DNA of 54,575 nt from Bacillota bacterium (GTDB lineage Bacteria > Bacillota > Bacilli > Lactobacillales > Aerococcaceae), in the NCBI GenBank assembly GCA_023442905.1, contig JAEZWY010000230.1, positions 1 through 54,575 on the forward strand. The letters are read 5' to 3'. The notes below the pieces were generated by a model. It was given only the letters and a program-made list of their open reading frames with translations. It was not told where the DNA came from and did no database searches. Both the position numbers and the translations under genes were made by a program. Numbering within the stretch: the first letter of the stretch is position 1; every line of letters begins with the position of its first letter. Shown here piece by piece: positions 6,771 to 28,867 of this stretch.

Positions 6771-6796
6771 TTCAACAAACGGGCCATTTTGCGGGA
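6771..6796 (+). repeat. 26-bp palindromic putative recombination site A
   Basis: TTCAACAAA CGGGCCAT TTTGCGGGA. Confidence 0.75.
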
Positions 6797-6804
6797 TAAA
6801 GACT

Positions 6805-6833
6805 AAGAAAACGCCCATTTTAGAATGGGCGTT
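6805..6833 (-). terminator. Terminator of the PadR-DUF6194 operon
   Basis: AACGCCCATT/AATGGGCGTT stem followed by TTTCTT on the - strand. Confidence 0.7.
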
Positions 6834-6860
6834 GGTAATATGTTCTCATGTAAATCCCGT

Positions 6861-7274
6861 CTAGTTTCGTTTTTTGCGTTGTAACCGTTTGTCTGCAACC
6901 GAATGCGCTTCATTGATCAATTGTTTTGTTTTTTCTACATTATCACCGACAGGATTAAGGATACACACAAAATGCTGCCGTGAATAGTGAGGATGCGGTA
7001 GAAACTCGTTTAGAATTGAATAATCGATGTCTCTTTCCAATTGATCACCCACCAGATTATTGAATGTTTCTTTGCTTACCCCTATATTAAGACGATACAC
7101 ACCTTCTCGATCAAGGTTAGACACATCATCATATTCGTTGTCTGAATCGGCAGTGGTAACAAAGGGTAAGCGATGATCGTTTCCTACAAAGAAGAACGAA
7201 TACCCAAAGGTCTCCTCCCTTTGAACATTTGGTAATCCATTAATAAATGCCTCAAAATCAGTCTGTTTCATCAT
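6861..7274 (-). CDS. DUF6194-like hypothetical protein
   Basis: SNLDREGVYRLNIGVSKETF and LPHPHY...CILNP motifs, recalled as this family. Confidence 0.55.
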   Translation of the reverse strand: MMKQTDFEAFINGLPNVQREETFGYSFFFVGNDHRLPFVTTADSDNEYDDVSNLDREGVYRLNIGVSKETFNNLVGDQLERDIDYSILNEFLPHPHYSRQHFVCILNPVGDNVEKTKQLINEAHSVADKRLQRKKRN

Positions 7275-7836
7275 TTTCCCTCCATTTTTTCGAGTTGAAT
7301 CTATATTTTCCCGCCTGAAGATTTCTCAATATGTTTTCTGTAGTAACAGCTTCATTTTTAACGTAGCCAACCCAAATGCCAACAAGTTCAGGATGTTTTG
7401 AAGGGTCAGGTGGAAACTCCTCTGTAGGCAACCCTTCTAAGAAATTGATAGACTTTTCAAGTTCAGCACGGCGTTGCTGTAAGAGCTCTATTACTTTCTC
7501 TCGGGGTACTGTATCCATGAAAGCAACCCCTACTGAAAATTCTTGAATATCGAAACTTACAAGTGCCGATTCAAGCAAATTTATAAATTCAGATTCTCCT
7601 TGCTGGGTAATAATATACTCTTTACGTGACGGTCCAATTTTCTTACTGTCATCTGATTTAATTGACTTAATCATTTCTAATGATTCAAGCTTATCTACAG
7701 CGTGATAAATAGACCCTGGTTTGACGCTAGTCCAAGAGTCAGCGTGCCAAGATGTGATATCGCTGTATACAGCGTATCCATAACTGACTCCCTTTCGAAA
7801 AATGGAGCCTAATACAAGTAATCTAACCGTGGACAT
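7258..7836 (-). CDS. PadR-family transcriptional regulator
   Basis: SYGY...VKPGSIYHAVDKLE...RKEYIITQQG winged-helix pattern. Confidence 0.88.
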   Translation of the reverse strand: MSTVRLLVLGSIFRKGVSYGYAVYSDITSWHADSWTSVKPGSIYHAVDKLESLEMIKSIKSDDSKKIGPSRKEYIITQQGESEFINLLESALVSFDIQEFSVGVAFMDTVPREKVIELLQQRRAELEKSINFLEGLPTEEFPPDPSKHPELVGIWVGYVKNEAVTTENILRNLQAGKYRFNSKKWRENDETD

Positions 7837-7863
7837 TAAATCCTCCTTTCTTAAGGTTTTCCT

Positions 7864-7937
7864 TATCTATTCAAATTTGTATAGATAGATTATATATTTT
7901 ATTATATGTGCGATAACTAGTCAAATTTGAATAGATA
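7864..7937. promoter_or_regulatory. Two palindromic operators upstream of padR
   Basis: TATCTATTCAAATTTGTATAGATA (7864-7887) and TAACTAGTCAAATTTGAATAGATA (7914-7937). Confidence 0.65.
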
Positions 7938-7950
7938 GTAAAAATGCTTC

Positions 7951-7976
7951 TTCCGCAATCGGGCACGATTGTGGAA
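7951..7976 (+). repeat. 26-bp palindromic putative recombination site B
   Basis: TTCCGCAAT CGGGCACG ATTGTGGAA, same orientation as site A. Confidence 0.75.
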
Positions 7977-7997
7977 GATCAAATAGTCATTTAAGTT

Positions 7998-8033
7998 ACA
8001 ACCGAAGAGTTTAACTACTCTTCGGTTGTTTTT
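7998..8033 (+). terminator. Intrinsic terminator (T-tract on +; may also stop the - strand lysis transcript)
   Basis: Perfect 13-bp stem ACAACCGAAGAGT/ACTCTTCGGTTGT followed by a T-run. Confidence 0.75.
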
Positions 8034-8035
8034 AT

Positions 8036-8743
8036 TTATTCATACTTCACAAACGCATCTTTAAACCCAGCTTTCTTTGCCTTTTCCAGCTGCTTATCAG
8101 CATTCTTTTTAACACTATACGCACCAATCTGTACACGATATAGTTTCTTTCCACCAGTTGATGGTTTAGATGTTGACGTACCTTTCGCTAATTCCTTCTT
8201 CACATCTGCCCTAAACGTATCCATTGACTTACCATGTTTTGAAAACCAATGACGTGGGTCGCCATGATTACTAGCGATTTTTTTCTGGTACCCTTCATAA
8301 TGGCCGATGATATTTTTCTCCGTCAGTTTGTATTGCCTACAAAGATAAGCAGCAAGTTCCACCGCTTCTTTATAAACTTTATTAAAGTAAGTTTTGTCGG
8401 TTAAATTATCTTCACAGATTTCAAAACCAATATGTGTATTGTTCGCATCTCCACCCGCATGCCAACCACGATGATTCCAAGGTAATGTTTGGTAAGTTGC
8501 AATCGATCCATCTTTTAACTTTCCGATAAAAGCATGAACACACACTTGTCTGCCATCTGGACGTGGCTGGTTCCAGTGATTGTTGTATTGATTCTTTCCT
8601 AACAAACCATCGTCTGGGCCAACGTAACGTTTTAAATTCGGATTGTTTGCCCCTGTGCTATGGACCATAATTCCCTTTGGTGTGATTTTCCTTCCAGCTT
8701 TGTAACAATCATTCTTCGTTAAATATAACTTTTTTAAATTCAT
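8036..8743 (-). CDS. Endolysin: N-acetylmuramoyl-L-alanine amidase (Amidase_2) + SPOR domain
   Basis: IMVHSTG, GWHAG, IGFEIC, IIGH, HGDP. C-terminal YRVQIGAYSVKKNA. Confidence 0.92.
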   Translation of the reverse strand: MNLKKLYLTKNDCYKAGRKITPKGIMVHSTGANNPNLKRYVGPDDGLLGKNQYNNHWNQPRPDGRQVCVHAFIGKLKDGSIATYQTLPWNHRGWHAGGDANNTHIGFEICEDNLTDKTYFNKVYKEAVELAAYLCRQYKLTEKNIIGHYEGYQKKIASNHGDPRHWFSKHGKSMDTFRADVKKELAKGTSTSKPSTGGKKLYRVQIGAYSVKKNADKQLEKAKKAGFKDAFVKYE

Positions 8744-9150
8744 GATTCATTTCCTCCTTTATTGTGTAACTGAGCAAGTGCATTTTTCAACTTCTCAGGT
8801 ATTGGTAAACCCAAGCGTGAAGCATTTTCTAGCATGGAAATCCCTTCATTCGAGCAATAAAAAAAGATGACTGCTGTTCTAAGAACGCTGCCATCCCCTA
8901 TTAAATGTGTGTCAATCATATGCCCGACACCTACCAGTATAAAAATTAATACCTTCTTAAATATCCCTCGGTAACCAATCTCACTAGACAGTTCCTTATC
9001 AACAATTGCACACATAATTCCAGTGATATAATCAGCAACAACCAATATGATCAAGGCATACAAAAAGCCATCTAACCCTCCTAAAAACCAACCAATAAAT
9101 CCGCCTAGTGCTGTCACGATAATCTGTATCCAGTTCCATATATCCTTCAT
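8740..9150 (-). CDS. Phage holin (holin_4_1 / toxin secretion family)
   Basis: DYITG...SSEIGYRGIFKK...NEGISMLEN...LGLPIP, TM segments, next to the lysin. Confidence 0.92.
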   Translation of the reverse strand: MKDIWNWIQIIVTALGGFIGWFLGGLDGFLYALIILVVADYITGIMCAIVDKELSSEIGYRGIFKKVLIFILVGVGHMIDTHLIGDGSVLRTAVIFFYCSNEGISMLENASRLGLPIPEKLKNALAQLHNKGGNES

Positions 9151-9227
9151 TGAAAATTTCCCCCTTCAATTTTAAAAAACATCTATATTAAATAGGTATC
9201 CACATTTAGTAGACACCCTTGAATTGT

Positions 9228-11699
9228 TTATATTTGTTTTGGTAAGGCTTCCCATACTCGCATATCTTCCTGACCTAATGACCAAATAGCAATGCCTCGT
9301 AACTTCCATTTGTAAGCTGCCTCGTTTGCCCAATAAACCAAGCTATCAACATCTTGATAATAAAGAATTGAAAAACCATCCGCATCTCCTAGAAATAATC
9401 GTGATATCCAAAGATTAATATCCTTTGGTTTTATTTTGACGGTATAATCATTTCCAGCAATTAGTGGTAATTCTTGTGAGTGGAAGAAATCATAGTCCAT
9501 TGATATATCATCACTTCTTGTGCTTATCTCTTCCACATCATTATTTACTTTAAAGACTTGAAACTCGTTATTCCAAGTAACATCTGTTCTTGGTATTCTT
9601 CCAAATTCTACTGTGTTTCCATTTGGAAAAGTTATATCTACACTTTCATATGGTTCGTATGTCCATGCATCTCCTAAACGGAGTAAGTCAGATATCATGC
9701 GGTTATCTGAGCGAATTCCTGCATAGCCTCCACTGAAATCGTTTATATCCACTTTAAATCTGAATGTGTTTGCTGCCCCGGAATACACCCTAACAGAATT
9801 ATTTCGTATTCGCATTTCAATCGTATAAAGATTAGGTGCGGTTCGTAAGTTAGCATTTGGGGTGCGTTCTATTTGAACATTATAACTTCCTAGTAATGAA
9901 CTACCTTTATACAATTCCAAACGCTGGGTACTATAGTTTAAACAACAAAATAAATCTCCACAGAATACTCCCGCTCGCCCATTCCCATTTTGCAGAAAAC
10001 CTATTCTCGCCCTAATGTGTATATCTTTAAAATCGGAATACCTCCATGTCAATTCACCTTTTCCATCAAGCTGTGCATAAGGACGTGGATTGTTAAAATC
10101 ATCTTTTTTCCATACTTCCCATTCACCGCTTAGGGTTGTCCAATAATTGCTAGGTAGCGGATTTTCATCCCTGAAGTCCTCGTACCAGATAAGGGCTGAG
10201 TCTGGCTTTCTTCTCAATACTTCAGTCGTTAATTTAAATGCCCGATCCGGTTCCACCATTTGACCATTTACCCCTTTAAATTTTCTTGGAGCAAGTAAGA
10301 ACTCCGCTTCACCCGCGCTAGATGATTGTTGAAAGTCTGAGCAAACTCTAAAACCATAAAACTGTACACCAGGTATTCCTGCTTTAACTTTGATGGTATG
10401 TGCACCTGCTGTTAAGGATATATTCTTCTTTAACGTTAACCAGCAAGTCGTTCTCCAATAAGGCCACCATAGCCTACCTTCTTTAAAGGTTGTTTCATCA
10501 TTATTAATTGATATTTTAATCGTATTTTTATCCCAAAAAGGAAAACCAATCCTTACTGCAATGTCATAAGTTCCACTAGATTGCAATGTGAAATTGTATG
10601 TTGTTTCACCGTTTTCCCCAAGAGTAACCATCTGAGAAGAATCAGATACAATTCCCGCATGACTATCATAATTACTGCCTTGACGGTCAATATATATATT
10701 TCCAAACTCCGTCTTTTGTTGTTTACTATATGCTGTTAAAAAGCTTCTTCGGTTATAATCTTCTGCAATTAATGGATTTGTTCGTGTGATTGCATCTGGA
10801 CCCTCCATGTAATCATAGACATGTGGCAAAGCCCATGGGACTTTATCATAATCATCCCAATAAGCAATGATAGGGATCATTGGTTGAGGTGGTGCATCAT
10901 CTGTAAAATTGTACCCTCCTGTCATCCAAAGCTGTGCAGCATAATATGTGTTGGACGTACCACGATAAACCCTATTTAAATTCTGAGGAGTATCATCAAT
11001 TCGCCAGTTCCAACCATAACCTGGAAGGCCTAAGAATATCTTCTTTGGAGACATAACACTTGTTGCATAATTATATATACCTTCCAGCCAATCTCGAGGA
11101 GAAACGGGCCCTGGAGCGGAGCCTGCCCAAGCCATCCCATAACTCATAATCGCAGCTGTATCACAATAAGAATCTAAATCTTCATATACACACCAGTTTT
11201 CTCCACCCACTGAACCTTGAACCCCTGTCATTCCAGGTAAGCAAATATTGACAAGCTTTGATGAGTCATGTTGTTTGACAGTTTGATAAATATCTTTAAA
11301 TAAAAGGTTTGCGGCATCTTTATTTTCATAACCACCACCACGTTCCAAATCAATATCAACACCATCACACCATGGATACTTATTCATGATTCGAACGATT
11401 TCAGATAAAAACTTATCCTTTGCACCATTTGTGTTATTTCTGATTGCTGTAAATATTGATGCCGTTCCATGATTCATGATTGTTAGCAACCATTTTATAT
11501 GCGGCCATTTATTGATATATAGCATCATGCTCGATATACTTGTCCCTGTTTCTTTAATAGTACCTGTAATATCTACCTCAAATGTAAATATACCGACCGT
11601 ATCAAGCCTATCCCCGTATTTGTTTAAAGCCTCATACATTCTTGCGTTTCCCATGAAACTCCACACCATTGTCTTTTTGCCTTCTAGATATTGACTCAT
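9228..11699 (-). CDS. GH18 glycoside hydrolase with inserted beta-sandwich domains (tail-associated)
   Basis: DGVDIDLE (DxxDxDxE), IMSYG, PGPVSPRDW, C-terminal LRGIAIWSLGQED. Confidence 0.85.
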   Translation of the reverse strand: MSQYLEGKKTMVWSFMGNARMYEALNKYGDRLDTVGIFTFEVDITGTIKETGTSISSMMLYINKWPHIKWLLTIMNHGTASIFTAIRNNTNGAKDKFLSEIVRIMNKYPWCDGVDIDLERGGGYENKDAANLLFKDIYQTVKQHDSSKLVNICLPGMTGVQGSVGGENWCVYEDLDSYCDTAAIMSYGMAWAGSAPGPVSPRDWLEGIYNYATSVMSPKKIFLGLPGYGWNWRIDDTPQNLNRVYRGTSNTYYAAQLWMTGGYNFTDDAPPQPMIPIIAYWDDYDKVPWALPHVYDYMEGPDAITRTNPLIAEDYNRRSFLTAYSKQQKTEFGNIYIDRQGSNYDSHAGIVSDSSQMVTLGENGETTYNFTLQSSGTYDIAVRIGFPFWDKNTIKISINNDETTFKEGRLWWPYWRTTCWLTLKKNISLTAGAHTIKVKAGIPGVQFYGFRVCSDFQQSSSAGEAEFLLAPRKFKGVNGQMVEPDRAFKLTTEVLRRKPDSALIWYEDFRDENPLPSNYWTTLSGEWEVWKKDDFNNPRPYAQLDGKGELTWRYSDFKDIHIRARIGFLQNGNGRAGVFCGDLFCCLNYSTQRLELYKGSSLLGSYNVQIERTPNANLRTAPNLYTIEMRIRNNSVRVYSGAANTFRFKVDINDFSGGYAGIRSDNRMISDLLRLGDAWTYEPYESVDITFPNGNTVEFGRIPRTDVTWNNEFQVFKVNNDVEEISTRSDDISMDYDFFHSQELPLIAGNDYTVKIKPKDINLWISRLFLGDADGFSILYYQDVDSLVYWANEAAYKWKLRGIAIWSLGQEDMRVWEALPKQI

Positions 11700-12286
11700 A
11701 GCTTGTCACTTCCTTCTTGCATTTCCTGGAATTCAAATAAAACTCGTGCTGCTTTTCCTTCTTCGAGTTCTACAATATGTTTACTATCAGATGCTGCGGT
11801 ATATTGATAGAACCCTTCTTTTTCTGTTTTGGTTTGATTTCGCAACGCTTGTCTACTTGAAGCCAATAATGAAAATGTATCATCTGGATTTGCTACAGCT
11901 TTAAATTTCATATGGTGGGATCCATATCCTTGCGAAAGTTTAATACTTCCTGCTTTCATTGATTGAAGGGGTGTGATATGACAATCCAGTCCTGCAGATG
12001 TTGTTCCCAGATTAAATATGACAATCGTTTCTTTACTTCTAACCACTCCTTTATAGAAACGAACTGGGAGAACCCCGCTTTCTTCTCTATATTTTTCAAG
12101 TGAGGTTTCTGTGTTTAAGACATATCCCGTTAGCTTATCGCCTTCTTGAAGTTGTATATCTGTATAATAAATCGTCCCCGTACAGTCTGTAACGAACAAT
12201 TTCAAAGTTACATTTACGACTCTTTTATCTTCTTTCACACGTATCGTTTCACTAAATCGAGTAAATTGTATCGCCATTCGAATCAC
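11696..12286 (-). CDS. Tail-tip accessory protein
   Basis: N-terminal DCTGTIYYTDIQLQEG is paralogous to the adjacent 67-aa ORF. Confidence 0.6.
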   Translation of the reverse strand: MIRMAIQFTRFSETIRVKEDKRVVNVTLKLFVTDCTGTIYYTDIQLQEGDKLTGYVLNTETSLEKYREESGVLPVRFYKGVVRSKETIVIFNLGTTSAGLDCHITPLQSMKAGSIKLSQGYGSHHMKFKAVANPDDTFSLLASSRQALRNQTKTEKEGFYQYTAASDSKHIVELEEGKAARVLFEFQEMQEGSDKL

Positions 12287-12490
12287 CTAACCATCAAGAG
12301 TCCACTTTATTTCTGATACATGCCCAACCCATCCAGTAGCGATTGAGCCACCTTGCAAAAGAATATCTGTAAAATACACTGTCCCAGTGCAATCTTTTAC
12401 AAATAATTGAATTGTTAATTTCTTAATTTCCCCAGATCCTTTTGGAGTAATTACATGTGCAGTTTGAGTTAAAAAAACCATTTCAAACAC
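12287..12490 (-). CDS. Small tail-tip protein (half beta-sandwich)
   Basis: DCTGTVYFTDILLQGGSIATGW. GAGGTG RBS suggests a start at ATG ~12481. Confidence 0.6.
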   Translation of the reverse strand: MFEMVFLTQTAHVITPKGSGEIKKLTIQLFVKDCTGTVYFTDILLQGGSIATGWVGHVSEIKWTLDG

Positions 12491-12492
12491 CT

Positions 12493-15012
12493 CTAATATA
12501 AATCAATAATTCTCTTTTCAATCGTTCCATCTTCGTATTCAATTTCCACTTCAATCCCTACTTGCCCATTTGGTCCTTTCTCTAAATTTTCAGAACCAAT
12601 TTGTGCGGATATAGTATAATTCTTTCGATTTGCTGGATATACGGTTTGATACATAGATTTCGTCCTTCCCAAAACACCTTCAGCTTTAAAGGATGCATCT
12701 CCGCTTGCACCATTGTTAGGGGCAACTGTAAAACCAGAATTCACCCAATACGTAAATCCATCATCTGCCCTTGAATTTCTCAAATGATTAAACGGTACTA
12801 AATCCTTTATTTCCTGCCGATCAAGCACATCTGTATCATGTAGCATATCTGCAGCCTTATCCCACTGGGCTGATGAATCACCTAATTCTTTTAATTTCGT
12901 TGACAGTTCAATCACTGTTTTCCATGGTTCTTGCAAATTGTACTGCCTGCGTACGATACGAGTCTTAACTTGTAAGTTTAATTCTTTATCGTTCACCGTA
13001 ACAATATCTCCTAGATCCCACTCTTCGTGTTCATAACCCGTTAGTACAGACAAGTCCATTGCTGTTAAAACATACGACACTCTCGGTTTTGCATATTGTC
13101 CTAATCTCATATTTGCAAACTCCAACATTTGATAAGGATTGCTAAAGGATGAGGCATCAAGTGTTGCTATCCGTGCCTCTGATGTAAAGCTATAATCTTC
13201 TACATATGCTTTGTTATTATTGATAGATGAAAATGTCATGCCATCTTTACCGTATGCGTATAATCTTGTCACTAAACTTCTTGTATCCACTGTTCTTTGA
13301 ATACTTTTCATATTCTTTCTATAGCTAAATAACGCACCACTATCTTTACCGCCAAATGTCAGTAAATGAACTAAACGATTCGCACTATCAAAAATTAAAT
13401 CTCCACCATGGATATTTTGCACTTCTCGTAATATAGATAATGCATTTTTCTCCTCTGATTCCCACGTCCGCTTTGTAGTTACATTCACATTTCCAACAGA
13501 CCACTCCGTTCCTTCTAACGCATATTTCATCGGGACATCAGCAGTATCTGCATTAAATTCAATAGGCTGTTTGTCCGTACTAAAAGCTAAGTCATAAAAA
13601 TCTGCTTCTGCATATACGTGAGTGATGATATTACCTTCTTGGCTTTTTTCATCCGTTATCGTTCGTATGCGATACACATCGTCTACGATTTGAATTTGTT
13701 TTTCGTTTTCAATACTTTCCCTTTTTAAATCATGAAAAGGAATCTTAAACTCTAAGATGTCAGCACCATTAATTTCACTTGTAACAATGACATCAAACGC
13801 ATTTTCTAAAACTGCATCCCATGCTCCATTACTATCCAAAACGACAGGCCTAGCAAATCCAAGTTTTTCATAGGCAGGTTTTGGGATATCATGCAATATA
13901 ACTTCTATTAGTTTCGGTGTTTTCGTTTCATCTTCTGTCGTTAAAGTAATGCGATAGCGGATATAGGCTCTATTAGGTGAAATTAATTCACCTGTTGGTC
14001 CAATTGTTTGCCACGAAGTCCAATCCTCAAGGTCATCTGATGTGGATGTTTCAACTAAACTAATCGCAGTGGTCCCAGCAATATATTCACTAGTTACTGA
14101 AACTCTACCATTGCCACCTAAACTACACTTTTTAGGTATTGTATAGAGCACACCACTACCTGGATACTTGTTATCTTCTTGCTTTAAAATAACAGCACCT
14201 GGTTCCGTTAATGCATCTACTTGGGATGCACTATCTGCACCATTTGCTTGAATAGAAGATTTAAAATGTAAGTGTATATCTTCCATTGTTAACTTTGAAT
14301 CTTTCTCAAAAAACCAATCATCAAAACCACCAGCATAGTAATACGTATCTTGTAACATACCCACGACAATGTCAGCGGTACATTCTTCATTCAATACACC
14401 TGTATAATTTCTTACAGATGATTGCCAAGTTGCCCCGTTCGACCTGTCACCGATAAAGTTTTGAATTGTTTTATCAGTCCTATTAATAATTGTTGTGATA
14501 AAATACCAACCATTATTTACAAAGCTAATACTTGGTGTCTCGGATGTATCATAAATTAATGTCCCAGCATTGTTATAAAGCATTAATCGTAGTCTTCCTT
14601 GATATAACGAAATATACAGGATTGGTTGTCCTGGTCCATTTCTTGTACTAAATATAGGAATAAATGTTTGACCGATTGAATAGGTTGTTGGATTTATCCA
14701 GCCACCGACAACAATTTTCTCCCCTAAATCAGTAAAAAAGCTACCATCATTGGTAGCGGTAAGATATGTCTTTTCACTTGTTGGATTGACAATATTCTGC
14801 CTGAAAAATCGTCCAAATTTCCCTGCCACTAAACTTGCAGATGTTCCAGACCAATTTGATATAGTAAAATGATGATTATTTGTGCCACTATCTATCAGCT
14901 TACTTTCATTTGGTTGTGATTCATTAAAACGCCATAATGCAACTGTTTCATCATGAATCGGAAACTCACCAGTAAAATCTGTTTGAGATGTTACAACCGA
15001 TTGAATCGCCAT
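12493..15012 (-). CDS. Tail spike / Tal-like protein (LamG-like N-terminus + prophage tail endopeptidase domain)
   Basis: ALWRFNE...GGWINP...GGFDDW, then NMKSIQRTVDTRSLVTRLYAYGKDG...LGDIVTV. Follows Dit. Confidence 0.8.
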   Translation of the reverse strand: MAIQSVVTSQTDFTGEFPIHDETVALWRFNESQPNESKLIDSGTNNHHFTISNWSGTSASLVAGKFGRFFRQNIVNPTSEKTYLTATNDGSFFTDLGEKIVVGGWINPTTYSIGQTFIPIFSTRNGPGQPILYISLYQGRLRLMLYNNAGTLIYDTSETPSISFVNNGWYFITTIINRTDKTIQNFIGDRSNGATWQSSVRNYTGVLNEECTADIVVGMLQDTYYYAGGFDDWFFEKDSKLTMEDIHLHFKSSIQANGADSASQVDALTEPGAVILKQEDNKYPGSGVLYTIPKKCSLGGNGRVSVTSEYIAGTTAISLVETSTSDDLEDWTSWQTIGPTGELISPNRAYIRYRITLTTEDETKTPKLIEVILHDIPKPAYEKLGFARPVVLDSNGAWDAVLENAFDVIVTSEINGADILEFKIPFHDLKRESIENEKQIQIVDDVYRIRTITDEKSQEGNIITHVYAEADFYDLAFSTDKQPIEFNADTADVPMKYALEGTEWSVGNVNVTTKRTWESEEKNALSILREVQNIHGGDLIFDSANRLVHLLTFGGKDSGALFSYRKNMKSIQRTVDTRSLVTRLYAYGKDGMTFSSINNNKAYVEDYSFTSEARIATLDASSFSNPYQMLEFANMRLGQYAKPRVSYVLTAMDLSVLTGYEHEEWDLGDIVTVNDKELNLQVKTRIVRRQYNLQEPWKTVIELSTKLKELGDSSAQWDKAADMLHDTDVLDRQEIKDLVPFNHLRNSRADDGFTYWVNSGFTVAPNNGASGDASFKAEGVLGRTKSMYQTVYPANRKNYTISAQIGSENLEKGPNGQVGIEVEIEYEDGTIEKRIIDLY

Positions 15013-15019
15013 GTTAATA

Positions 15020-15793: not shown

Positions 15794-15808
15794 TCATCCC
15801 ACTCCTTT

Positions 15809-18430: not shown

Positions 18431-18501
18431 ACTGCCACCTCCTAACCATAACAAGTAAAAAAGCACCTCTTTGATTTGAGGTACTAGTAGAAACTTTATA
18501 T

Positions 18502-18678: not shown

Positions 18679-18689
18679 TTCTTCATCGT

Positions 18690-19073: not shown

Positions 19074-19088
19074 AATTGTTCGCTCCTT

Positions 19089-19685: not shown

Positions 19686-19688
19686 GAA

Positions 19689-20036
19689 TCATTCCTCCAT
19701 TTCAAATTCATAATATTTTGCTACATCAATTGCTAAATGGTGATAACCAGTATCATCTTCATGCCCGATATATCTCCTATCTGTAATAACAAAGTCCGCA
19801 CCCAAAAGAGTACGGACTAAACTATTTTTAATTGATGTATAATTCTTTTTTGAAAACAACGAAACTCTAACCTCTTGAACATCGTACTTCGGGAAATTAT
19901 CCGCATGTAATTCAAACATCTCTACAATCGGTGTTATGACAATATATAAATCAGGGGCAGTATCAGAAAAGATACCTGTTTCAACTGGAATACCACATTG
20001 TTCTGCAATTTGAGTCACTTCGGCTAGTACACTCAT
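19689..20036 (-). CDS. Tail completion / terminator protein
   Basis: Position, and ADN...EDDTGYHH motifs. Confidence 0.65.
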   Translation of the reverse strand: MSVLAEVTQIAEQCGIPVETGIFSDTAPDLYIVITPIVEMFELHADNFPKYDVQEVRVSLFSKKNYTSIKNSLVRTLLGADFVITDRRYIGHEDDTGYHHLAIDVAKYYEFEMEE

Positions 20037-20464
20037 ATATTTTCCACTTCTTCTTCCAATTTTTTAATCATGACTTCCATACAAGGCTGTCTTGATGTTC
20101 TTCTTGCAGGTTTTAAAAATGGCTTTGCAGGTTGTCCAGATTTTCCATATTCGATGATGTTTGCTAATTTAGCATTGCTCACTCCGTCTTTACGCGGTTC
20201 ATTAAACCCTACTTTAACATTATGGTTTCCCCTTCGATCAACTAAGGCAGGTGATACTCCTAATGCAGATACCAACTCACCAGTTGATCTACTTGGCAGT
20301 TTTGTATCTTTTCCAATTACCGAACTTAAATTGGACTTCATTTTTTCTAATACAACTTCTCCGCCTGCTTCAAGGACTCTCGGAACGATTTCATCTGTCT
20401 TACTTCCCAATCTAGATATCTTCATCAAGAATTCTTCTGGCATTTTAATATTCACTTTAGCCAT
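20033..20464 (-). CDS. HK97 gp10-like neck protein
   Basis: RSTGEL...IEYGKSGQPAKPFLKPA. Confidence 0.85.
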   Translation of the reverse strand: MAKVNIKMPEEFLMKISRLGSKTDEIVPRVLEAGGEVVLEKMKSNLSSVIGKDTKLPSRSTGELVSALGVSPALVDRRGNHNVKVGFNEPRKDGVSNAKLANIIEYGKSGQPAKPFLKPARRTSRQPCMEVMIKKLEEEVENI

Positions 20465-20792
20465 CTGCTGCCACCACCTTTTTAGTTAAAACTTCGATAT
20501 ACATATTTCTATTTTTCACATTATCAACACTTATTATCTCGTACCGTCCGTCATCACATACAATAAACATTTTTGGTTTAATGGGTAAATCGGGAATGTT
20601 TCTAAAACGAAATAACGCATTCGCTTCAGAAAAGGCGGCTCTATTTGCCCAGGTTTTACTTCCAAATCGTTCTTCTTTATAAGCTGTTACAGAAGCTAAT
20701 ATTTTATCGGTTTCTTCACTGAAAGACTCTTCATCTTTTACAATTTCACGTGTGATAATGTCGATAAGTGTGCGCATTTTTCCAAAACTCAT
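20457..20792 (-). CDS. Head closure (head-tail adaptor) protein
   Basis: MSFGKM...FRFR...RYEIISV; position. Confidence 0.8.
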   Translation of the reverse strand: MSFGKMRTLIDIITREIVKDEESFSEETDKILASVTAYKEERFGSKTWANRAAFSEANALFRFRNIPDLPIKPKMFIVCDDGRYEIISVDNVKNRNMYIEVLTKKVVAADG

Positions 20793-20795
20793 ACA

Positions 20796-21116
20796 CTACA
20801 CCTTCCAATCTCTATCTAACCGTAGTAATAAGTTTACTGTTTTCCACACCTGTTCTCCAGCAAGTGCGCTATCTGCAAAAAAGCCACCTGTACTACCATC
20901 TCGACTTTCATAAAAGTGAGAAGCCAACATGATAATCGCTTGCTCTGTTGTAGCAGGCATATTTTCATTTTTATATGTGCCTTCTTTAATATGTTGATAA
21001 CTTTCTGCATAAGATATGGCTGCAGTGATGTACATTTCTATTAAAGCATCATCTTTATCATGTTGGAGTATTAAATTAGCTTTTACTTTTTCTAGTAATG
21101 TCATCACTAACACCAC
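20796..21116 (-). CDS. Head-tail connector (gp6-like)
   Basis: LEKVKANL...DDALIEMYITAA...QAIIMLASHFYESRD. Confidence 0.85.
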   Translation of the reverse strand: MVLVMTLLEKVKANLILQHDKDDALIEMYITAAISYAESYQHIKEGTYKNENMPATTEQAIIMLASHFYESRDGSTGGFFADSALAGEQVWKTVNLLLRLDRDWKV

Positions 21117-21118
21117 CT

Positions 21119-21346
21119 TTAATTATCTGACATATAATCAGATGTTTTTAATTTTGATAGTAATGCATTGAAATCGGCAACTAAATCTTCTACTGTTTCC
21201 GCAGTACTATCCGATTGATTTACCATTTTTTCATTTGAAGAAGAAGGAAGGCCAGTGACCTTCGCCCCTTCTTCAATAACAAGTTCCCCACCAATAACCG
21301 TTTTCTCTCCGCCTTGTTCTGTATAATTTTTAGTGTTATACCCCAT
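21119..21346 (-). CDS. Small head-associated (head fibre-like) protein
   Basis: Ends DFNALLSKLK; lies after the capsid gene. Confidence 0.55.
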   Translation of the reverse strand: MGYNTKNYTEQGGEKTVIGGELVIEEGAKVTGLPSSSNEKMVNQSDSTAETVEDLVADFNALLSKLKTSDYMSDN

Positions 21347-21363
21347 CGCACTCTACCCCTTTA

Positions 21364-22560
21364 TTATTTTTGTTGTAAGACTTTGATTGCTTCTGGCAAG
21401 ATCAACTTTCCATCGACACGTTGACTGGCTAAGAAACCAACTTGACCTGTCGTTGCAAATAATTCGTTTAATCGTTTGAATGAACGACCTTGACGATCCG
21501 CAATCCAGTAGTAACCAAAGTCACCGAAAGCAATCGACTTCACTCCACTCGCTATTGTAGGTGCATAAGCTGATGTATAGATTGGACGATTCAATAAAGT
21601 ATCTGGCGTACCCGCTGTTAATGATGGTTGCCATAAATATTGTCCTTGGCCATCCTTTAATTTTCTAATTGCTTTTACTGTTGCATCATTCATAATGAAT
21701 ACTGCATTTTTACGATAAGGCGCCTTCAAAGAAAACACTAAATCAATAATCTCATCTGCAGTAATAGCTGTGGTAGATGCTGCTGTTACTCCAAGTTCAG
21801 CACCGCCAGTATCATTAAAGATTCCCGTTGGTTTTCCTTCGCCATTACCTACAAGAAATGCCTCTTCCTCTTTAGCACCAATTCTTCGAGCAAACTCAGT
21901 TGAAATATAGTTCTCTAAATTAAACACACTATCATTTAACAATTCATCTGAAACCTTTAACATTGTACCAAGCTTGTATGCGCCGATGGATGTTTGTCCA
22001 AATGCTGAGTCACTTTCTTCAAATTCTTCACCCTCATCAAGCCATGCAGCAGACCCTTTCGTTGTTACAACTGGAATCTTACGGTCACCACTCGATGTCT
22101 TAACTACTTTTGCTAATTGACGGAATACATTTTCTTCTTCTAGCGTTTGAACAAGTGTACGCTCAAATTCATCTGGAACTAAAAAACCACCTTCCGAGTC
22201 AGTTCCTACGGAAAGTGAGTTCATAACTTCTTGTGTTGGTGCTTTACTTCTCATTGCATTCCAAAATGCATTTTTATATTCGTCTGACGCTCGACCTTCT
22301 TTTGATTCCATGCCTGGCACAGAAGGTTTACCAATGATAGGTGTATTTATTGGTCGATTTAACTCTGCATCTAATGCTTCTTGCCTTTCTAATCGTTGGA
22401 TTTCTTTACCTAAATTCATAATATCTTCTTCCATACGATCGTACATCTGCGCATCTTCAGCTGATACTAAACCATCACTTCCTCGTTTTGTATCTAAAAA
22501 TGCCTTAGCTGCCTCCCATGCTTTTGCTCTTTTCTCTCGTAATTCTAAAATTTTATTCAT
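21364..22560 (-). CDS. Major capsid protein, HK97 family
   Basis: N-terminal coiled-coil delta domain, GGFLVP, GNGEGKPTGI, LKDGQGQYLWQ, FGDF, RVDG. Confidence 0.95.
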   Translation of the reverse strand: MNKILELREKRAKAWEAAKAFLDTKRGSDGLVSAEDAQMYDRMEEDIMNLGKEIQRLERQEALDAELNRPINTPIIGKPSVPGMESKEGRASDEYKNAFWNAMRSKAPTQEVMNSLSVGTDSEGGFLVPDEFERTLVQTLEEENVFRQLAKVVKTSSGDRKIPVVTTKGSAAWLDEGEEFEESDSAFGQTSIGAYKLGTMLKVSDELLNDSVFNLENYISTEFARRIGAKEEEAFLVGNGEGKPTGIFNDTGGAELGVTAASTTAITADEIIDLVFSLKAPYRKNAVFIMNDATVKAIRKLKDGQGQYLWQPSLTAGTPDTLLNRPIYTSAYAPTIASGVKSIAFGDFGYYWIADRQGRSFKRLNELFATTGQVGFLASQRVDGKLILPEAIKVLQQK

Positions 22561-22572
22561 ATTGATTTCCTC

Positions 22573-23259
22573 CTAATATTTCAATAGATTAAGCCGCTCA
22601 TAAAGCGGATCAACTGATTGTTTTACTTGTGGTTTTTGTATTTTGTTTAACAGTGAATTTGTAACTGCTCGCCTACTAAAAACGAAACTATTTTCAGGTT
22701 GGTTTTCATCTTTACCATTTGCGAACATAATGGCATCCGCAAATCCTAGTTCAATTGCTTTATGTGCATTAAGCCACGTTTCAGCATCCATTAATTCCGA
22801 TAGTTTATTTCTTGATAAACTTGTTTTAATTTCATAAGCGTTAATAATGCTTTCTTTTACTTCATCAAGCATATGCACCGTCTTTTTCATTTCTTCACTA
22901 TCACCAATTGCAACAGTAAACGGATTATGAACCATCATTAGGGACGTTGGTGACATTTGAATTTCAGTGCCTGCCATCGCAATCACAGATGCTGCCGATG
23001 CGGCAATGCCATCAATTTTCACAATGACATCGCCAGGATATTCCATCAGCATGTTGTAAATTTGTGCAGCTGCAATACAATCACCCCCTGGCGAATTAAT
23101 CCAAACTTCAATATCGCCTATGCCTTGCACGAGTTCTTCCCTAAAGGCAGATGGTGTGACTTCATCATCAAACCAACTCTCCTCTGCTATTGCCCCATAT
23201 AAATGAAGGGTTCGCTTGTCGGTTTCATTTTCTTTTGTCCAATTCCAAAACTTCTTCAT
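22573..23259 (-). CDS. Head maturation protease, ClpP-like
   Basis: INSPGGD, IDGIAASAASVIAMAG, MMVHNP, ETWLNA. Start at MKKFWNW. Confidence 0.92.
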   Translation of the reverse strand: MKKFWNWTKENETDKRTLHLYGAIAEESWFDDEVTPSAFREELVQGIGDIEVWINSPGGDCIAAAQIYNMLMEYPGDVIVKIDGIAASAASVIAMAGTEIQMSPTSLMMVHNPFTVAIGDSEEMKKTVHMLDEVKESIINAYEIKTSLSRNKLSELMDAETWLNAHKAIELGFADAIMFANGKDENQPENSFVFSRRAVTNSLLNKIQKPQVKQSVDPLYERLNLLKY

Positions 23260-24511
23260 CTTCGGTTTCCTCCTTTTCATATTTCTTTGCAAACACACCT
23301 GCGTCTTGGAGTTTCGTCATATTCCCATTGATTAAATATAAATCTCCACCAAGTTCATCCGGTATCCTGTCTAAGTTCTCAAGTTCACGAATATCATTAG
23401 CACTCATCCAGCCATTTTGTCTTGCTGTTGCGTAGCCACTCATTCGTGAAGCATAATCACCCCTAAGCAATCCATCCACATTAAATTTCACAAAGTAAGC
23501 TTTCTTTTCGCTATTAGTAAACAATGAACGACTAATTGCTTGCTCCCACCGAATAACCCATGGATCAAGTGTGTATTTAACGAATTCTAATGATTGTTGC
23601 TCTATATTAGAAAAGCTCGATTTCTCCAAATCACCGACCATATGAGGTGGTACTCGGAAAATTCGAGCGATCTCGTTAATCTGAAATTTTCTTGTTTCTA
23701 AAAATTGAGCTTGATCAGGTGCAATTGCGATTTGTTGATACTTCATACCTTCTTCTAATACAGCAACTCGATGCGCATTACTTGAACCTTGATAAGCTTT
23801 ATTCCAGCTATCTTTTACCCTTTGTGGATCTTTAATAGTTCCTGGATGTTCTAAGACTCCCCCCGGTGCTGCTCCATTGGCAAAAAACTTTGCACCATAT
23901 TCTTCAGTAGCCATTGCCAGACCGACTGCATTTTTCGCCATAGCAATTGGTGAATAGCCAACTAAACCATCAAAACCAAGTCCAGGTATGTGCAGAACAT
24001 CTTCAGCTTTTAATGCAACAGTTGTCTTCTCTGAACCACTCATTTCATCAAATGTTTTGGTGTATAAATAATATAAATTACCTCTAGCATCTCTTTCGAC
24101 TGACATTTTATTTGGCATGAGTGGATAAAGCGCAATGACTTCACCTTTTCCATTTCGAATAATTTGTGCATACGCATTTCCCCATAATAAAAGATGAGTC
24201 ATTAATGTTTCTCTAAACACAAATGAACTCATCTCAGGATTTGGTTCGTCATGAAGTAAAAAATATAAGGTATGGGATACCGCTTTTTCTTTTCCACCTG
24301 TATCTGTATATTTATATAAGTGCAGTGGTAAACCTGCTACCGCTTCAGCTAATATTCGTACACATGAATATACTGCGGTCATTTGCATCGCTGTAAATTC
24401 ATTGACTGCTTTTCCACTACTAGAGTTTCCAAAGAAAAAACTATAGTTACTTCCAAATGAATAGTTTTGTGGTTTATCTCTCGCTTTGAAAAAATTTGTA
24501 AACCACCGCAT
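23225..24511 (-). CDS. Portal protein, HK97 family
   Basis: LLWGNAY, VLHIPG, GYSPI, IARIFRVPPHMVG, SNIEQQ. Confidence 0.95.
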   Translation of the reverse strand: MRWFTNFFKARDKPQNYSFGSNYSFFFGNSSSGKAVNEFTAMQMTAVYSCVRILAEAVAGLPLHLYKYTDTGGKEKAVSHTLYFLLHDEPNPEMSSFVFRETLMTHLLLWGNAYAQIIRNGKGEVIALYPLMPNKMSVERDARGNLYYLYTKTFDEMSGSEKTTVALKAEDVLHIPGLGFDGLVGYSPIAMAKNAVGLAMATEEYGAKFFANGAAPGGVLEHPGTIKDPQRVKDSWNKAYQGSSNAHRVAVLEEGMKYQQIAIAPDQAQFLETRKFQINEIARIFRVPPHMVGDLEKSSFSNIEQQSLEFVKYTLDPWVIRWEQAISRSLFTNSEKKAYFVKFNVDGLLRGDYASRMSGYATARQNGWMSANDIRELENLDRIPDELGGDLYLINGNMTKLQDAGVFAKKYEKEETEDEEVLELDKRK

Positions 24512-24532
24512 ATGAACATCACCTCCTCAACA

Positions 24533-26140
24533 TTAAAACACAATCAATCCTCTACCATCATAAACAGAATCACTTGTTCCGCTTCTTCTTATCGCTCGGT
24601 CAAGTGCCATAATTGTTGCCACCGCACCATCGATTTTTTCTGTTGATTTTTCTTTATCTGGTTTAATGTTTCCGGCTGGATCTGTTCGAACATGAATGTT
24701 ATCCATCATCCAACGTAAAACTGGATGCCCACCATGCGCAAGTTTTTCTTCTAATGTTAATTTCATTAGCTCCTTTGATGAAGGACTCATATCTTTAAAC
24801 CCCTGTCCAAATGGAACGACTGTAAAACCTAATTCTTCGAGGTTTTGCGTCATCTGAACAGCACCCCATCTATCAAATGCAATTTCCTTTATGTTATATT
24901 TCTTACCTAATTCTTCGATAAACTTTTCAATATAAGCATAATGAACAACGTTTCCTTCTGTTGTTTGCATATGTCCTTGTTGTTCCCATACATCATAGGG
25001 CACTCTGTCTCGATCCACACGTTGCCTAATGTTTTCTTCTGGTATCCAAAAGTATGGCAATATCACATATTTATCATCTTCATATTCTGGTGGAAAGATT
25101 AAAACAAATGCTGTGATGTCTGTTGTTGATGATAAGTCTAAACCCGCATAGCACTCTCTACCAATTAAACTTTCAGGGTCAACTGGTAAACCACATCTAT
25201 CCCACTTTTCCATTGGCATCCATCTGACAGATTGTTTTACCCATTGATTCAAGCGTAATTGCCTAAACAAGTTTTCCTCAGCTGGGTTTTGTTTCGCACT
25301 TTCACATGCTTGTTCAACCTTCTCAATATCGACTGTAATTCCTAGCGATGGATTTGCCTTCTTCCAAATCTCAGGATCTGTCCAATCATCATCTTCTTCT
25401 GCTCCATAAATGACAGGATAAAAAGTGGGATCAATTTTCCTTCCCTCAAGTACATCTTTTGCTTTTTGATGTACTTCGTAACAAATCGAGTGTTGGTCAT
25501 TTCCTGCTGTTGTAATTAAGAAGTACAGTGGTTGTTTCCTTGCATCTCCCGAACCATGGGTCATAACATCATATAGCCTTCGATTCGGCTGAGCGTGAAG
25601 TTCATCAAACACGACCCCATGAACGTTCAATCCATGTTTTGTATAAGCTTCCGCAGATAGCACTTGATAAAAGCTACCTAATGGTTTATAAATCAATCGC
25701 TTTTGTGAAAGAACTGGTTTAAATCGTGCCTTAAGTGCGGGTGATTGTTCCACCATGTCGACAGCAACGTCAAATACAATCGATGCTTGTTGCCTATCCG
25801 CAGCACATCCATACACTTCTCCGCCATGTTCAAAATCACCACATGTTAATAGTAATGCAACCGCAGCAGCAAGTTCTGACTTTCCTTGTTTCTTAGCTAT
25901 CTCAATATAGGCAGTATTAAACTGGCGATAGCCATTCGGCTTCATCGTCCCAAATACATCTCGAATAATCTGCTCCTGCCAATCTATCAAGTCAAAGTTC
26001 TTTCCGAACCATTCACCCTTTGTATGCTTTAAACAGTTAATAAAATTAACTGCCATATCGGCAGCATCTTTGTCATAGTATGATTGATCCGCTTTAAAGA
26101 TTGTCGGTTTATAATTTCCTAGTTTTCTAATTACCACCAC
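24533..26140 (-). CDS. terL: Terminase large subunit
   Basis: KKQGKS Walker A, VVFDELH Walker B, GLDLS nuclease motif, KIDG. Confidence 0.95.
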   Translation of the reverse strand: MVVIRKLGNYKPTIFKADQSYYDKDAADMAVNFINCLKHTKGEWFGKNFDLIDWQEQIIRDVFGTMKPNGYRQFNTAYIEIAKKQGKSELAAAVALLLTCGDFEHGGEVYGCAADRQQASIVFDVAVDMVEQSPALKARFKPVLSQKRLIYKPLGSFYQVLSAEAYTKHGLNVHGVVFDELHAQPNRRLYDVMTHGSGDARKQPLYFLITTAGNDQHSICYEVHQKAKDVLEGRKIDPTFYPVIYGAEEDDDWTDPEIWKKANPSLGITVDIEKVEQACESAKQNPAEENLFRQLRLNQWVKQSVRWMPMEKWDRCGLPVDPESLIGRECYAGLDLSSTTDITAFVLIFPPEYEDDKYVILPYFWIPEENIRQRVDRDRVPYDVWEQQGHMQTTEGNVVHYAYIEKFIEELGKKYNIKEIAFDRWGAVQMTQNLEELGFTVVPFGQGFKDMSPSSKELMKLTLEEKLAHGGHPVLRWMMDNIHVRTDPAGNIKPDKEKSTEKIDGAVATIMALDRAIRRSGTSDSVYDGRGLIVF

Positions 26141-26193
26141 CCCCTATCAAACAATCTTAAAAACTTAAATGAATTTATAAAATTTTGCACGAC

Positions 26194-26221
26194 AAAAAAG
26201 CCCAGACTAATATCTGAGCTT
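26194..26221 (-). terminator. Intrinsic terminator downstream of aadD and site C
   Basis: AAGCTCAGA/TCTGGGCTT stem followed by a T-run on the - strand. Confidence 0.7.
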
Positions 26222-26239
26222 AAGGCATCTATTTAATAG

Positions 26240-26265
26240 TTCCACAATCGCACCCGTTTGTTCAA
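26240..26265 (-). repeat. 26-bp palindromic putative recombination site C
   Basis: - strand TTGAACAAA CGGGTGCG ATTGTGGAA. Confidence 0.75.
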
Positions 26266-26367
26266 TAAGAAAAAGGCTTCTCAATGACAGTCGTGATGAT
26301 TTGTAAATATTAGGAGAAGTTAATCAATACGTAACCAACATGATTAGCAATTATTAGTGTTCATCGT

Positions 26368-27138
26368 TCAAAATGGTATGCGTTTTGACACATCCACTAT
26401 ATATCCGTGTCGTTCGGTCCACTCCTGAATCCCATTCCAGAAATTCTCTAGCGATTCCAAAAGTTTTTCGGAGTCGGAAAGCTGACCAGACATTACTAAC
26501 TGGCACAGAAGGTCATAACCTGAAGGAAGATCTGATTGCATAACGGCTTCAGTTAAAACCGAAGCGCTCGTCGTATAACAGATGCGATGATGCAGACCAA
26601 TCAACATGGCACCTGCCATAGCCACCTTTACAGTCAAGGATGGTAGAAATGTTGTCGGTCCTTGCACACGAATATTACGCCACTTTCCTGCATATTCAAA
26701 CAGTTCTTCTACGATAAGGGCACAAATCGCATCGTGAAACGCTTGGGCTTCTACCGATTTTGCAGTTTGATATACCTTCTCTAAGTATCCACCTGAATCA
26801 TAAATCGGCAAAATAGAGAAAAATTGACCATGTGTAAGTGGCCAATCTGATTCCACCTGTGATGCATAATCTAGTAGAATCTCTTCACTATCAAAATTCA
26901 CTTCCACCTTCCACTCACCAGTTGTCCATTCATGGCTGAACTCTGCTTCCTCTGTGGACAGGACACACATCATCTCAATATCCGAATAGGGCCCATCAGC
27001 CTGACGACCAAGAGAGCCATAAACACCAATAGCCTTAACGACATCCCCATAATTATCCAATATTCGTTCCTTAATTTCATGAACAATCTTCATTCTATCT
27101 TCTCTAGTCATTTTTATTGGTCCATTCACTATTCTCAT
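26368..27138 (-). CDS. aadD: Aminoglycoside 4'-O-nucleotidyltransferase ANT(4')-I (kanamycin nucleotidyltransferase)
   Basis: Nearly identical to the pUB110 KNTase as recalled (GVYGSLGR.DGPYSDIE...VSKRIPF), with about ten substitutions. Confidence 0.96.
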   Translation of the reverse strand: MRIVNGPIKMTREDRMKIVHEIKERILDNYGDVVKAIGVYGSLGRQADGPYSDIEMMCVLSTEEAEFSHEWTTGEWKVEVNFDSEEILLDYASQVESDWPLTHGQFFSILPIYDSGGYLEKVYQTAKSVEAQAFHDAICALIVEELFEYAGKWRNIRVQGPTTFLPSLTVKVAMAGAMLIGLHHRICYTTSASVLTEAVMQSDLPSGYDLLCQLVMSGQLSDSEKLLESLENFWNGIQEWTERHGYIVDVSKRIPF

Positions 27139-27252
27139 TCCTTCTTCAAATAATTTTAGATGTGCTTATCTAAATAAGAATATTTGGAGAGCACTATTCT
27201 TATTCAGCTATAAATACTCGTCTTCCTAAGCTCCTTCAATCTTTTAATAATA

Positions 27253-27261
27253 ATTATAGCA
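27253..27261 (-). promoter_or_regulatory. Extended -10 promoter for aadD, inside the cassette
   Basis: TGCTATAAT just downstream of site D on the - strand. Confidence 0.55.
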
Positions 27262-27268
27262 TCTAATC

Positions 27269-27294
27269 TTCAACTATTCTCCCCGTCTGTTGAA
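27269..27294 (-). repeat. 26-bp palindromic putative recombination site D
   Basis: - strand TTCAACAGA CGGGGAGA ATAGTTGAA, same orientation as site C. Confidence 0.72.
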
Positions 27295-27344
27295 CATTCA
27301 ATTTTGTTTATATCCTATCATAATTATTCGTACTTCTCTATTTC

Positions 27345-28841: not shown

Positions 28842-28867
28842 TTATCTACACTTATTCGGATGTATTT

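Follow-up and report, generated by a model that had tools for sequence, protein, structure and literature searches.

The stretch of DNA analysed here, called the window throughout, is the entire 54,575-nt contig JAEZWY010000230.1 (C63) of a 2.1-Mb genome from the Aerococcaceae, which is assembled in 236 contigs and 87% complete. It carries a prophage in which two unrelated cargo units are each bracketed by a pair of 26-bp sites, just downstream of the lysis genes (sites A and B) and just upstream of the gene for the large terminase subunit, terL (sites D and C). Cargo unit 1 (6797–7950, − strand) consists of a DUF6194 gene (6861–7274) and a gene for a PadR-family regulator (7258–7836), both assigned by Pfam, and lies between site A (6771–6796) and site B (7951–7976), both on the + strand; its genes are read against the direction of the sites and have a terminator of their own. 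Cargo unit 2 (26266–27268, − strand) comprises an aadD/ANT(4')-Ia gene (26368–27138; Pfam KNTase_C) with its upstream region, and lies between site D (27269–27294) and site C (26240–26265), both on the − strand. The aadD protein falls in a cluster named ANT(4')-Ia, and the gene is 91.9–93.9% identical to aadD of Bacillus thuringiensis plasmids and of pUB110.

The original prediction, which was made from the letters of the window alone, had described these sites as a 9-8-9 arrangement of arm, core and arm with cores starting CGGG, and had read them as the borders of integron-like gene cassettes. All four sites were confirmed letter for letter at their positions, as was the direct orientation within each pair, and the empty sites predicted for the two loci indeed differ at only 3 of 26 positions. 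With a matrix built from 24 sites of other sources, none of them from the window, sites A, B and C score 32.2, 34.8 and 33.6. Block-shuffling the window 200 times gave no score above 20.4 and, on average, 0.025 hits at ≥18 and 0.23 at ≥12, so that these three sites are far beyond chance. Site D scores only 11.4 and is not significant alone, as the matrix contained no D-type cores and two chance matches elsewhere in the window reach 10–11; it is supported by its position, by its resemblance to the sites that precede dfrK and mazG in plasmid pKKS627, which have the same core type, and by the homology breaks next to it. A second sequence model, R1, which included the window's own sites, finds only these four in the window (20.2, 22.1, 22.2 and 13.2 bits for A to D; next best 6.1 bits), and no further match of at least 15 bits was found in the rest of the 2.1-Mb genome. 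The left half-site alone, allowing up to three mismatches, is not enriched in the window (23 matches versus 16.8 expected).

Alternative cargo and homology breaks

Other cargo, which the original prediction had named as a mark of gene cassettes, occurs at both loci in related prophages and metagenome contigs. At the first locus, phage contig L085 has tet(L) and L178 has cadC-cadA where the window has padR-DUF6194, and homology breaks off at window positions 6799 and 7961. The phage flank, the left arm and the core of site A are identical in the window and both contigs and its right arm varies with the cargo, whereas for site B the core tail, the right arm and the flank are identical and the left arm varies with the cargo. 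The tet(L) unit of L085 (4771–6449) is 99.9% identical to that of plasmids such as pKKS627 from joint interior to joint interior (we use joint for any such site at a cargo border), and beyond these joints L085 and the pKKS627-type plasmids have nothing in common.

At the second locus, the nearest phage relative (L004; large terminase subunit, TerL, 98% identical) carries an erm(T)-like gene and is collinear with the window up to 26260 and again from 27297. Sequencing runs that contain the stretch of prophage around aadD come from 14 studies, which sampled poultry gut, dust, sludge, compost and sediment. In contigs from two public runs, the aadD unit gives way to 1522 other letters (joints at 26256 and 27291) or to 1183 (26249 and 27379); contig X2 rejoins the window at 27291, and loose contig ends begin at 26249 and 26262. 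The three points at which metagenome contigs depart from the window here, 26249, 26256 and 26262, thus all lie within site C. Homology of the aadD unit to plasmids ends in or at sites C and D as well, covering 26246–27280 for the B. thuringiensis plasmid pBMB232 and 26284–27295 for pUB110-type plasmids.

Two side observations concern the same locus. The erm gene of L004 (2850–3599), which comes with a leader region, is only about 82% identical to erm(T) in DNA and may hence be an undescribed erm variant. In run X19, the backbone contigs over window positions 24600–29000 have a depth of 55–62 compared with 1–4 for the aadD unit, which suggests, on contig evidence only, that most phage copies in this sample carry other cargo; the X19 backbone contigs stop at 26249 and 27379, again pointing to another allele on the same kind of evidence.

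The joints are not confined to phages. In pUB110, the site that the original prediction had named is real and lies upstream of aadD, directly behind the stop codon of rep; aadD and bleO are together enclosed by two full sites, and a third, half-degenerate site lies between the two genes. Plasmid pKKS627 has nine co-oriented joints that delimit tet(L), dfrK and mazG, and in pSU1 a pair of joints encloses tet(L). G019, a genome of the window's order, has an APH-family gene between a joint of the type found at site A and one of the type found at site B. This APH cassette (L237, contig G019:C5, 658–2565) adjoins a small resolvase gene and a fragment of a Tn3-type transposase gene. We also considered pBMB232 as a possible array for its array-like gene content, and rejected it, as only two eroded sites were found in its 45 kb. 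The padR-DUF6194 cargo had no match in the plasmid collection. Of 150 genomes sampled from the window's order, 4 had matches to the site model, as did 17 of 150 from its class, the latter mostly larger genomes.

All genes of the prophage itself lie on the − strand, between an AraC-type gene (3–368) and a rumA-type methyltransferase gene (52847–54241). Two genes for large serine recombinases of 522 and 530 aa (2812–4380 and 4798–6390), separated by a 138-aa open reading frame (ORF), lie at one end, 2.4 kb and 380 nt from site A; the original prediction had not mentioned this pair, which is probably the integrase pair of the prophage. Cargo unit 1 is followed by the holin and endolysin genes (8036–9150), then by the tail, head and portal genes and by terL (24533–26140). 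The gene for the small terminase subunit, terS, lies at 33738–34289. Between terL and terS are 7.6 kb of accessory genes (26141–33737) that include the aadD unit along with genes for an S-adenosylmethionine synthetase, N6/N4 and C5 DNA methyltransferases, a DUF4314 protein, an amidoligase and a GGACT-family protein. The prophage further has replication genes and, at its other end, a defence cluster (47.5–52.7 kb), in which defence-like genes for Abi_C, McrBC, an AAA_5 ATPase and a C5 methyltransferase fused to a helix-turn-helix domain occupy 47556–52668. A tyrosine recombinase is absent from the window, as the original prediction had stated, since all six PF00589 matches of the genome lie on other contigs.

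Joint arrays and an array-borne recombinase

When sites from all sources are compared, a joint consists of two inverted 9-nt arms around a core of 8–9 nt, which starts with C or A followed by GGG. Three core types can be told apart, of which P (site A) and R (site D) belong to opening joints and Q (sites B and C) to closing joints. In arrays, a Q joint is followed by a P joint within about 40 nt, and among 59 close pairs in the 79 recombinase loci described below, the 12 commonest combinations (42 pairs) are all Q then P. In long arrays, the Q–P pair is fused into a composite of about 70 nt, whose outer arms are those of a simple site and whose centre is a terminator-like hairpin.

The arms follow one consensus and do not covary within sites: 78.2% of the positions are paired compared with 76.0% in shuffled combinations, and 54 of 500 shuffles were as high. 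A hairpin kept by selection was hence discarded as an explanation, and the lack of covariation fits protein binding to duplex arms and a reshuffling of hybrid joints better. Rfam searches of pKKS627, pUB110, L171, the window and a Peribacillus array gave no relevant match, and the sole hits were sub-threshold small RNAs in the region upstream of rep in the plasmids, away from the sites. As a side observation, a module of 50–70 nt follows the opening joints in a Staphylococcus aureus plasmid (L164, 2780–2870), a phage contig (L171, 3130–3205) and a Peribacillus array (L276, 1300–1440). It is composed of a short conserved word, a hairpin of the site-D type and a stop triplet, precedes genes, and may represent a second joint type or a leader element.

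Tandem arrays of sites and genes, which had been proposed as a further mark of a cassette system, were found in pKKS627 (9 sites), in the phage contig L171 (9) and in Peribacillus frigoritolerans F-D2 (49, 20 and 13). In L171, the joints enclose four small genes between the late regulator and the terminase genes. The three arrays of P. frigoritolerans each lie on a single strand; that with 49 joints is located on a 160-kb contig downstream of conjugation genes, which its head abuts, and the arrays with 20 and 13 joints are chromosomal. In four scanned stretches, the array strand carries 12 of 16, 16 of 17, 28 of 30 and 17 of 23 ORFs (median lengths 147–184 aa), and the cargo of the P. frigoritolerans arrays is rich in NUDIX (8 of 81 ORFs) and GNAT genes (at least 6 of 81). 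No joint was found in 400 kb of this genome, sampled as twenty spaced regions of 20 kb, the window's 2.1-Mb genome has four, and 1213 kb of related phage loci have two; given this rarity outside cargo, the joints are not a general genome repeat.

No recurrent recombinase emerged from 69 ORFs tallied around 25 joint loci in Bacillales (Rce1-like genes were seen four times, MarR and IS110-type genes twice each). IS110-family transposase genes near joints thus account for 2 of these 69 ORFs and for 1 of the 81 in the P. frigoritolerans arrays. Relatives of this family target the attC sites of integrons, and by analogy they may target the present palindromes, too.

Two of the P. frigoritolerans arrays contain a gene for a tyrosine recombinase of 280 aa, designated P0001, which the databases name only 'tyrosine-type recombinase/integrase'. 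It matches PF00589 (Phage_integrase) with 139 bits (cut-off 27.1) and scores best on a XerA-type model, with 218.3 bits just under the cut-off of 220. On models of integron integrases it reaches 105 bits (TIGR02249, cut-off 265) and 71 bits (NF011946, cut-off 435), and its closest solved relatives are a XerC-like protein and XerD. Candidates for the catalytic residues Arg, Lys, His-x-x-Arg, His and Tyr can be read from its translation in the expected order. Relatives with 53–100% identity were found at 79 loci in many genera of the Bacillaceae and also on large plasmids. One or more joints lie within 10 kb of the gene at 70 of these 79 loci. A co-occurring recombinase, as the original prediction had called for, thus exists, although on the window it would act, if at all, in trans. 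Altogether, 381 joints lie in the 1383 kb of these loci, 374 of them co-oriented with the recombinase gene, and in 20 of 47 loci analysed a closing joint is situated 176–186 nt upstream of it. In P. frigoritolerans, by comparison, the two strongest Xer-like genes have no site in the 40 kb around them.

The P0001 loci also provide the clearest view of where homology ends. Between loci, 359 of 1784 homology ends lie within 15 nt of a joint centre, compared with 1.2% for random places, and when the recombinase unit is left aside, 20 of 124 ends do so compared with 1.3%. Breakpoints at the CGGG had been anticipated, and the cleanest case agrees with this: across four Bacillus mycoides plasmids, three different upstream genes adjoin one and the same P0001 unit, and each time the switch falls directly before the GGG, with the left arm and one further base on the upstream side. 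Separately, five loci of the family (L315, L319, L321, L340 and L358) have 1.4–2.7 kb around the recombinase gene in common and no joint recognised by the matrix; this subgroup may use a diverged site.

Proposed mechanism and rival explanations

Based on these comparisons, we consider it rather probable that the four sites are the crossover joints of a site-specific gene-cassette system of Bacillota and that a recombinase of the P0001 type is its most likely enzyme. A cassette would run from the GGG of its opening joint through the left arm plus one base of its closing joint. With cassette boundaries at the GGG, each joint would be a hybrid that takes its left arm from the upstream sequence and its core tail and right arm from the downstream sequence. 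Where a circle inserts into a joint with consensus arms, the opening joint would accordingly keep the consensus left arm and the closing joint the consensus right arm, which is the pattern seen at both loci of the window and in the plasmids. The putative enzyme, which is Xer-like and whose gene is itself one of the units in arrays of chromosomes, conjugative elements and large plasmids, would exchange one pair of strands at the GGG end, and replication, or a second exchange between like cores, would complete the reaction. A single exchange at the core start is favoured because P, Q and R joints have only the core start in common. Since no such enzyme is encoded in the window, the aadD and padR-DUF6194 units would either have been brought in by trans action in another host or have been acquired from joint-bearing plasmids or phages through exchange. 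From the cassette system originally predicted, alternative cargo, breaks at the joints, arrays and a linked recombinase have thus been borne out, and an empty site, pairs of like sites and membership among the integrons have not.

Several observations weigh against this interpretation. Most importantly, the empty-site allele that had been predicted was found at neither locus among 160 phage loci related by TerL or endolysin, of which only L085 bears sites, and a solo site was likewise seen at neither; the original prediction itself had named such an absence as counting against it. Relatives free of cargo are free of any site, the distant ones having about 290 siteless nt between the GGACT gene and terL, and contig L084 carries other cargo at the first locus without sites, its breaks lying 55 nt outside A and B. 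No circle or excision product was seen in the public runs, which were examined as contigs, a form in which neither circles nor rare deletions would be visible. Opening and closing joints differ in their core tail, which a classical two-strand exchange by a tyrosine recombinase does not tolerate, and because of these different core types a simple excision between A and B is not an obvious reaction. Many closing joints make up the leading half of a terminator hairpin that precedes a T run, so that part of their conservation may serve transcription, and site D as well as the sites of pBMB232 are eroded.

The association with the recombinase is also imperfect. Nine of the 79 P0001 loci have no site, and with flanks of ±1.5 kb sites were found in only 3 of 12 loci, the link appearing with 10-kb flanks. 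Among shared segments without the recombinase gene, only 1 of 39 has all four ends at joints, and in locus L392 the right end of the P0001 unit lies at no recognisable joint. The window's genome, at its completeness of 87%, has no P0001 relative at E 1e-40, the phage records have none above 37% identity, and pUB110-type plasmids encode only Rep and Mob, and hence no enzyme for the sites in cis. In the class sample, only three of seven genomes with a close P0001 relative also match the site model, and 14 genomes that match it lack one. More generally, PF00589 was detected in two of five records of joint-bearing phage contigs and is absent from a provirus that is 94% complete.

Two features of this list, the absence of the enzyme from the host and from small plasmids and the lack of an empty joint, together with the imperfect match between P0001 and joints and the terminator-like closing joints, make an exchange by short homology without a dedicated enzyme a serious rival, even though we regard it as unlikely. 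The joints would then be conserved frames for expression, i.e., leader and terminator, and RecA, phage annealing proteins or copy-choice would act across identities of 13–26 nt, favoured by the single-stranded stages of rolling-circle plasmids and conjugative elements. The plasmid–phage identity at the tet(L) joints is in fact 13–17 nt, the module behind the opening joints is conserved from an S. aureus plasmid to a phage contig and a Peribacillus chromosome, and related phages have kilobases of flank in common, which makes homologous exchange easy. Such a process does not, however, readily account for the breaks in the B. mycoides plasmids, which coincide to the base in three independent contexts, nor for a protein-site geometry with inverted arms and an invariant GGG that is kept from Staphylococcus to Peribacillus, nor for a recombinase gene that is tightly and co-directionally linked to joints. 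Moreover, padR-DUF6194 is read against the sites, so these are neither its promoter nor its terminator.

One could also imagine the cassettes as non-autonomous, transposon-like units with a P or R left end and a Q right end that are moved whole by an enzyme acting in trans, such as a single-strand HUH transposase or P0001 itself as a transposase, in which case the joint halves ascribed to the backbone would be conserved element ends. The strict roles of P and Q, the prevalence of Q-then-P pairs and the siteless cargo-free relatives would all be explained, as would the location of all joints of an array on one strand, including those of rolling-circle and conjugative elements; in addition, the P left arm and the Q right arm match the family consensus everywhere and can therefore not be assigned to a backbone. 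Yet in the B. mycoides plasmids the left arm varies with the upstream gene and the sequence is constant from the GGG onward, which is a hybrid joint and not an intact end. Neither locus of the window shows a target duplication, and no HUH gene recurred among the ORFs tallied in the 25 Bacillales loci and the P. frigoritolerans arrays. We hence hold this alternative to be improbable, and prefer the recombinase-mediated exchange of cassettes at the GGG.

There is still less to be said for sites that act only as operators or terminators, with cargo borders coinciding because intergenic signals mark the ends of genes. Palindromes in intergenic DNA, some of which overlap terminator stems, and a DNA-binding PadR regulator encoded between A and B would suit such a role, but the motif borders unrelated genes, and the several families in whose plasmids, phages and chromosomes it occurs have no regulator in common, three loci with PadR homologues among 400 genomes of the class lack such sites, no Rfam family matches, and the breakpoints lie inside the 26 nt rather than merely between genes, which makes this explanation very improbable. 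Finally, an action of the two large serine recombinases on the sites can hardly be upheld despite their proximity to site A and an outline that, read as 12-2-12, resembles the crossover sites of small serine recombinases, since pairs of this kind usually serve as the integrases when they lie at the end of a prophage, the sites occur without these genes in pUB110, pKKS627, L171 and the Bacillaceae arrays, the central dinucleotides of C and D differ in this reading, and the mapped break falls at the arm/core boundary and not at the centre.

Returning to the cassette system with a P0001-type recombinase, a broader picture can be drawn tentatively and with slightly more doubt than belief, namely that it constitutes the Bacillota counterpart of the integron. 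A cassette-borne, Xer-like recombinase would shuffle single-gene units at 26-nt joints in the long arrays that Bacillaceae bear on their chromosomes, conjugative elements and megaplasmids. From this pool, aadD, bleO, tet(L), dfrK, the APH gene and cadCA would have escaped into Staphylococcus, Enterococcus and the host of the window, where they would now lie on rolling-circle plasmids, in transposon contexts and in prophages. If true, this would provide a mechanism by which the same resistance genes come to lie in unrelated small plasmids of Gram-positive bacteria without an adjoining insertion sequence or transposase, and it would mean that resistance genes can enter phage genomes at defined joints. 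Soil Bacillaceae would represent a reservoir of exchangeable genes lined up in long arrays, and this in a phylum that is not known to have integrons. The compact pair of recombinase and site would further be a candidate for a genetic tool, and the site model and the recombinase family would allow cassettes to be delimited and traced in genomes and metagenomes.

In the literature searched, that is, main texts outside subscription journals, neither the motif nor the arrays of the Bacillaceae nor a role of P0001 is described; an older account, e.g., in papers of the 1980s on pUB110 or pBC16, is possible. No such site is described in the searched passages of a review of small plasmids of livestock-associated methicillin-resistant S. 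aureus and of a paper on qacC, the latter of which proposes a transfer between replication origins, and those of PMC5737381 and PMC8138268 contain nothing on the motif or on arrays in Bacillaceae. The 13-nt string of the left half-site occurs in papers that, by their titles, deal with the engineering of Bacillus subtilis.

Comparison with known systems

One close likeness is that to integrons, with which the present system shares arrays of small and mostly co-oriented accessory genes, each bounded by an imperfect palindrome whose outer inverted repeats are conserved and whose centre varies (from 26 to about 70 nt here). Cargo rich in acetyltransferases, single-gene resistance units, a linked tyrosine recombinase and a crossover at one edge of the core are further common traits. 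To this extent the integron-like character that the original prediction had proposed stands, as co-oriented single-gene arrays separated by sites do exist, but IntI with its family-specific insertion, attC and an attI platform were not found. P0001 is Xer-like, stays at 105 bits on the integron-integrase model with its cut-off of 265 and has 280 aa compared with the 320 residues of IntI4, and its gene lies within the array as one unit, not at the head beside attI and a promoter. The sites are 26–27 nt long, whereas attC sites have 57–141 nt with two pairs of core sites and fold as a single strand with unpaired bases; the joints show no hairpin covariation, and the composites of about 70 nt resemble attC in outline only. 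Surveys of integrons are not known to list any from Bacillota.

The dif modules (pdif) of Acinetobacter plasmids are similar in that resistance and accessory modules are bounded by short Xer-type sites, that no dedicated enzyme is present in cis and that the same module occurs in different backbones. Dif-like sites, to which the host XerC/XerD bind, have an 11-6-11 structure and are inverted relative to each other around a module. The joints, by contrast, are 9-8-9, are in direct orientation in both pairs of the window and in all arrays, come with two core types and are linked to a dedicated recombinase family. Cassette exchange with heterospecific lox or FRT sites likewise uses the same arms with different spacers to flank a cassette, and permits swapping without excision. 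Swapping between such heterospecific pairs would explain alternative cargo without an empty site, as no excision is needed. Cre and Flp are used in this way in engineered systems, whereas here the arrangement would be natural and its enzyme is putative, and the common GGG end suggests that unlike joints also react with each other.

Partners that are homologous on one side of the core only, like the P, Q and R joints, are known from the integration of CTX phage by XerC alone and from the attC × attI reaction of integrons, in which a single strand exchange is resolved by replication; folded single strands are used there, whereas nothing in the present data requires a folded strand. A family of short palindromes that goes with a single enzyme gene and also flanks this gene is reminiscent of repetitive extragenic palindromes (REP/REPIN) and RAYT genes, but RAYTs are HUH enzymes and REPs are spread chromosome-wide, whereas the joints are confined to accessory arrays and mobile cargo. 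Lastly, the two loci of the window recall phage morons and the boundary sequences of lambdoid phages, in that accessory genes lie between late genes, after lysis and before the terminase, with boundaries that recur in relatives. Unlike lambdoid boundaries, the motif described here recurs in other families, on plasmids as well as chromosomes, and has a recombinase linked to it.

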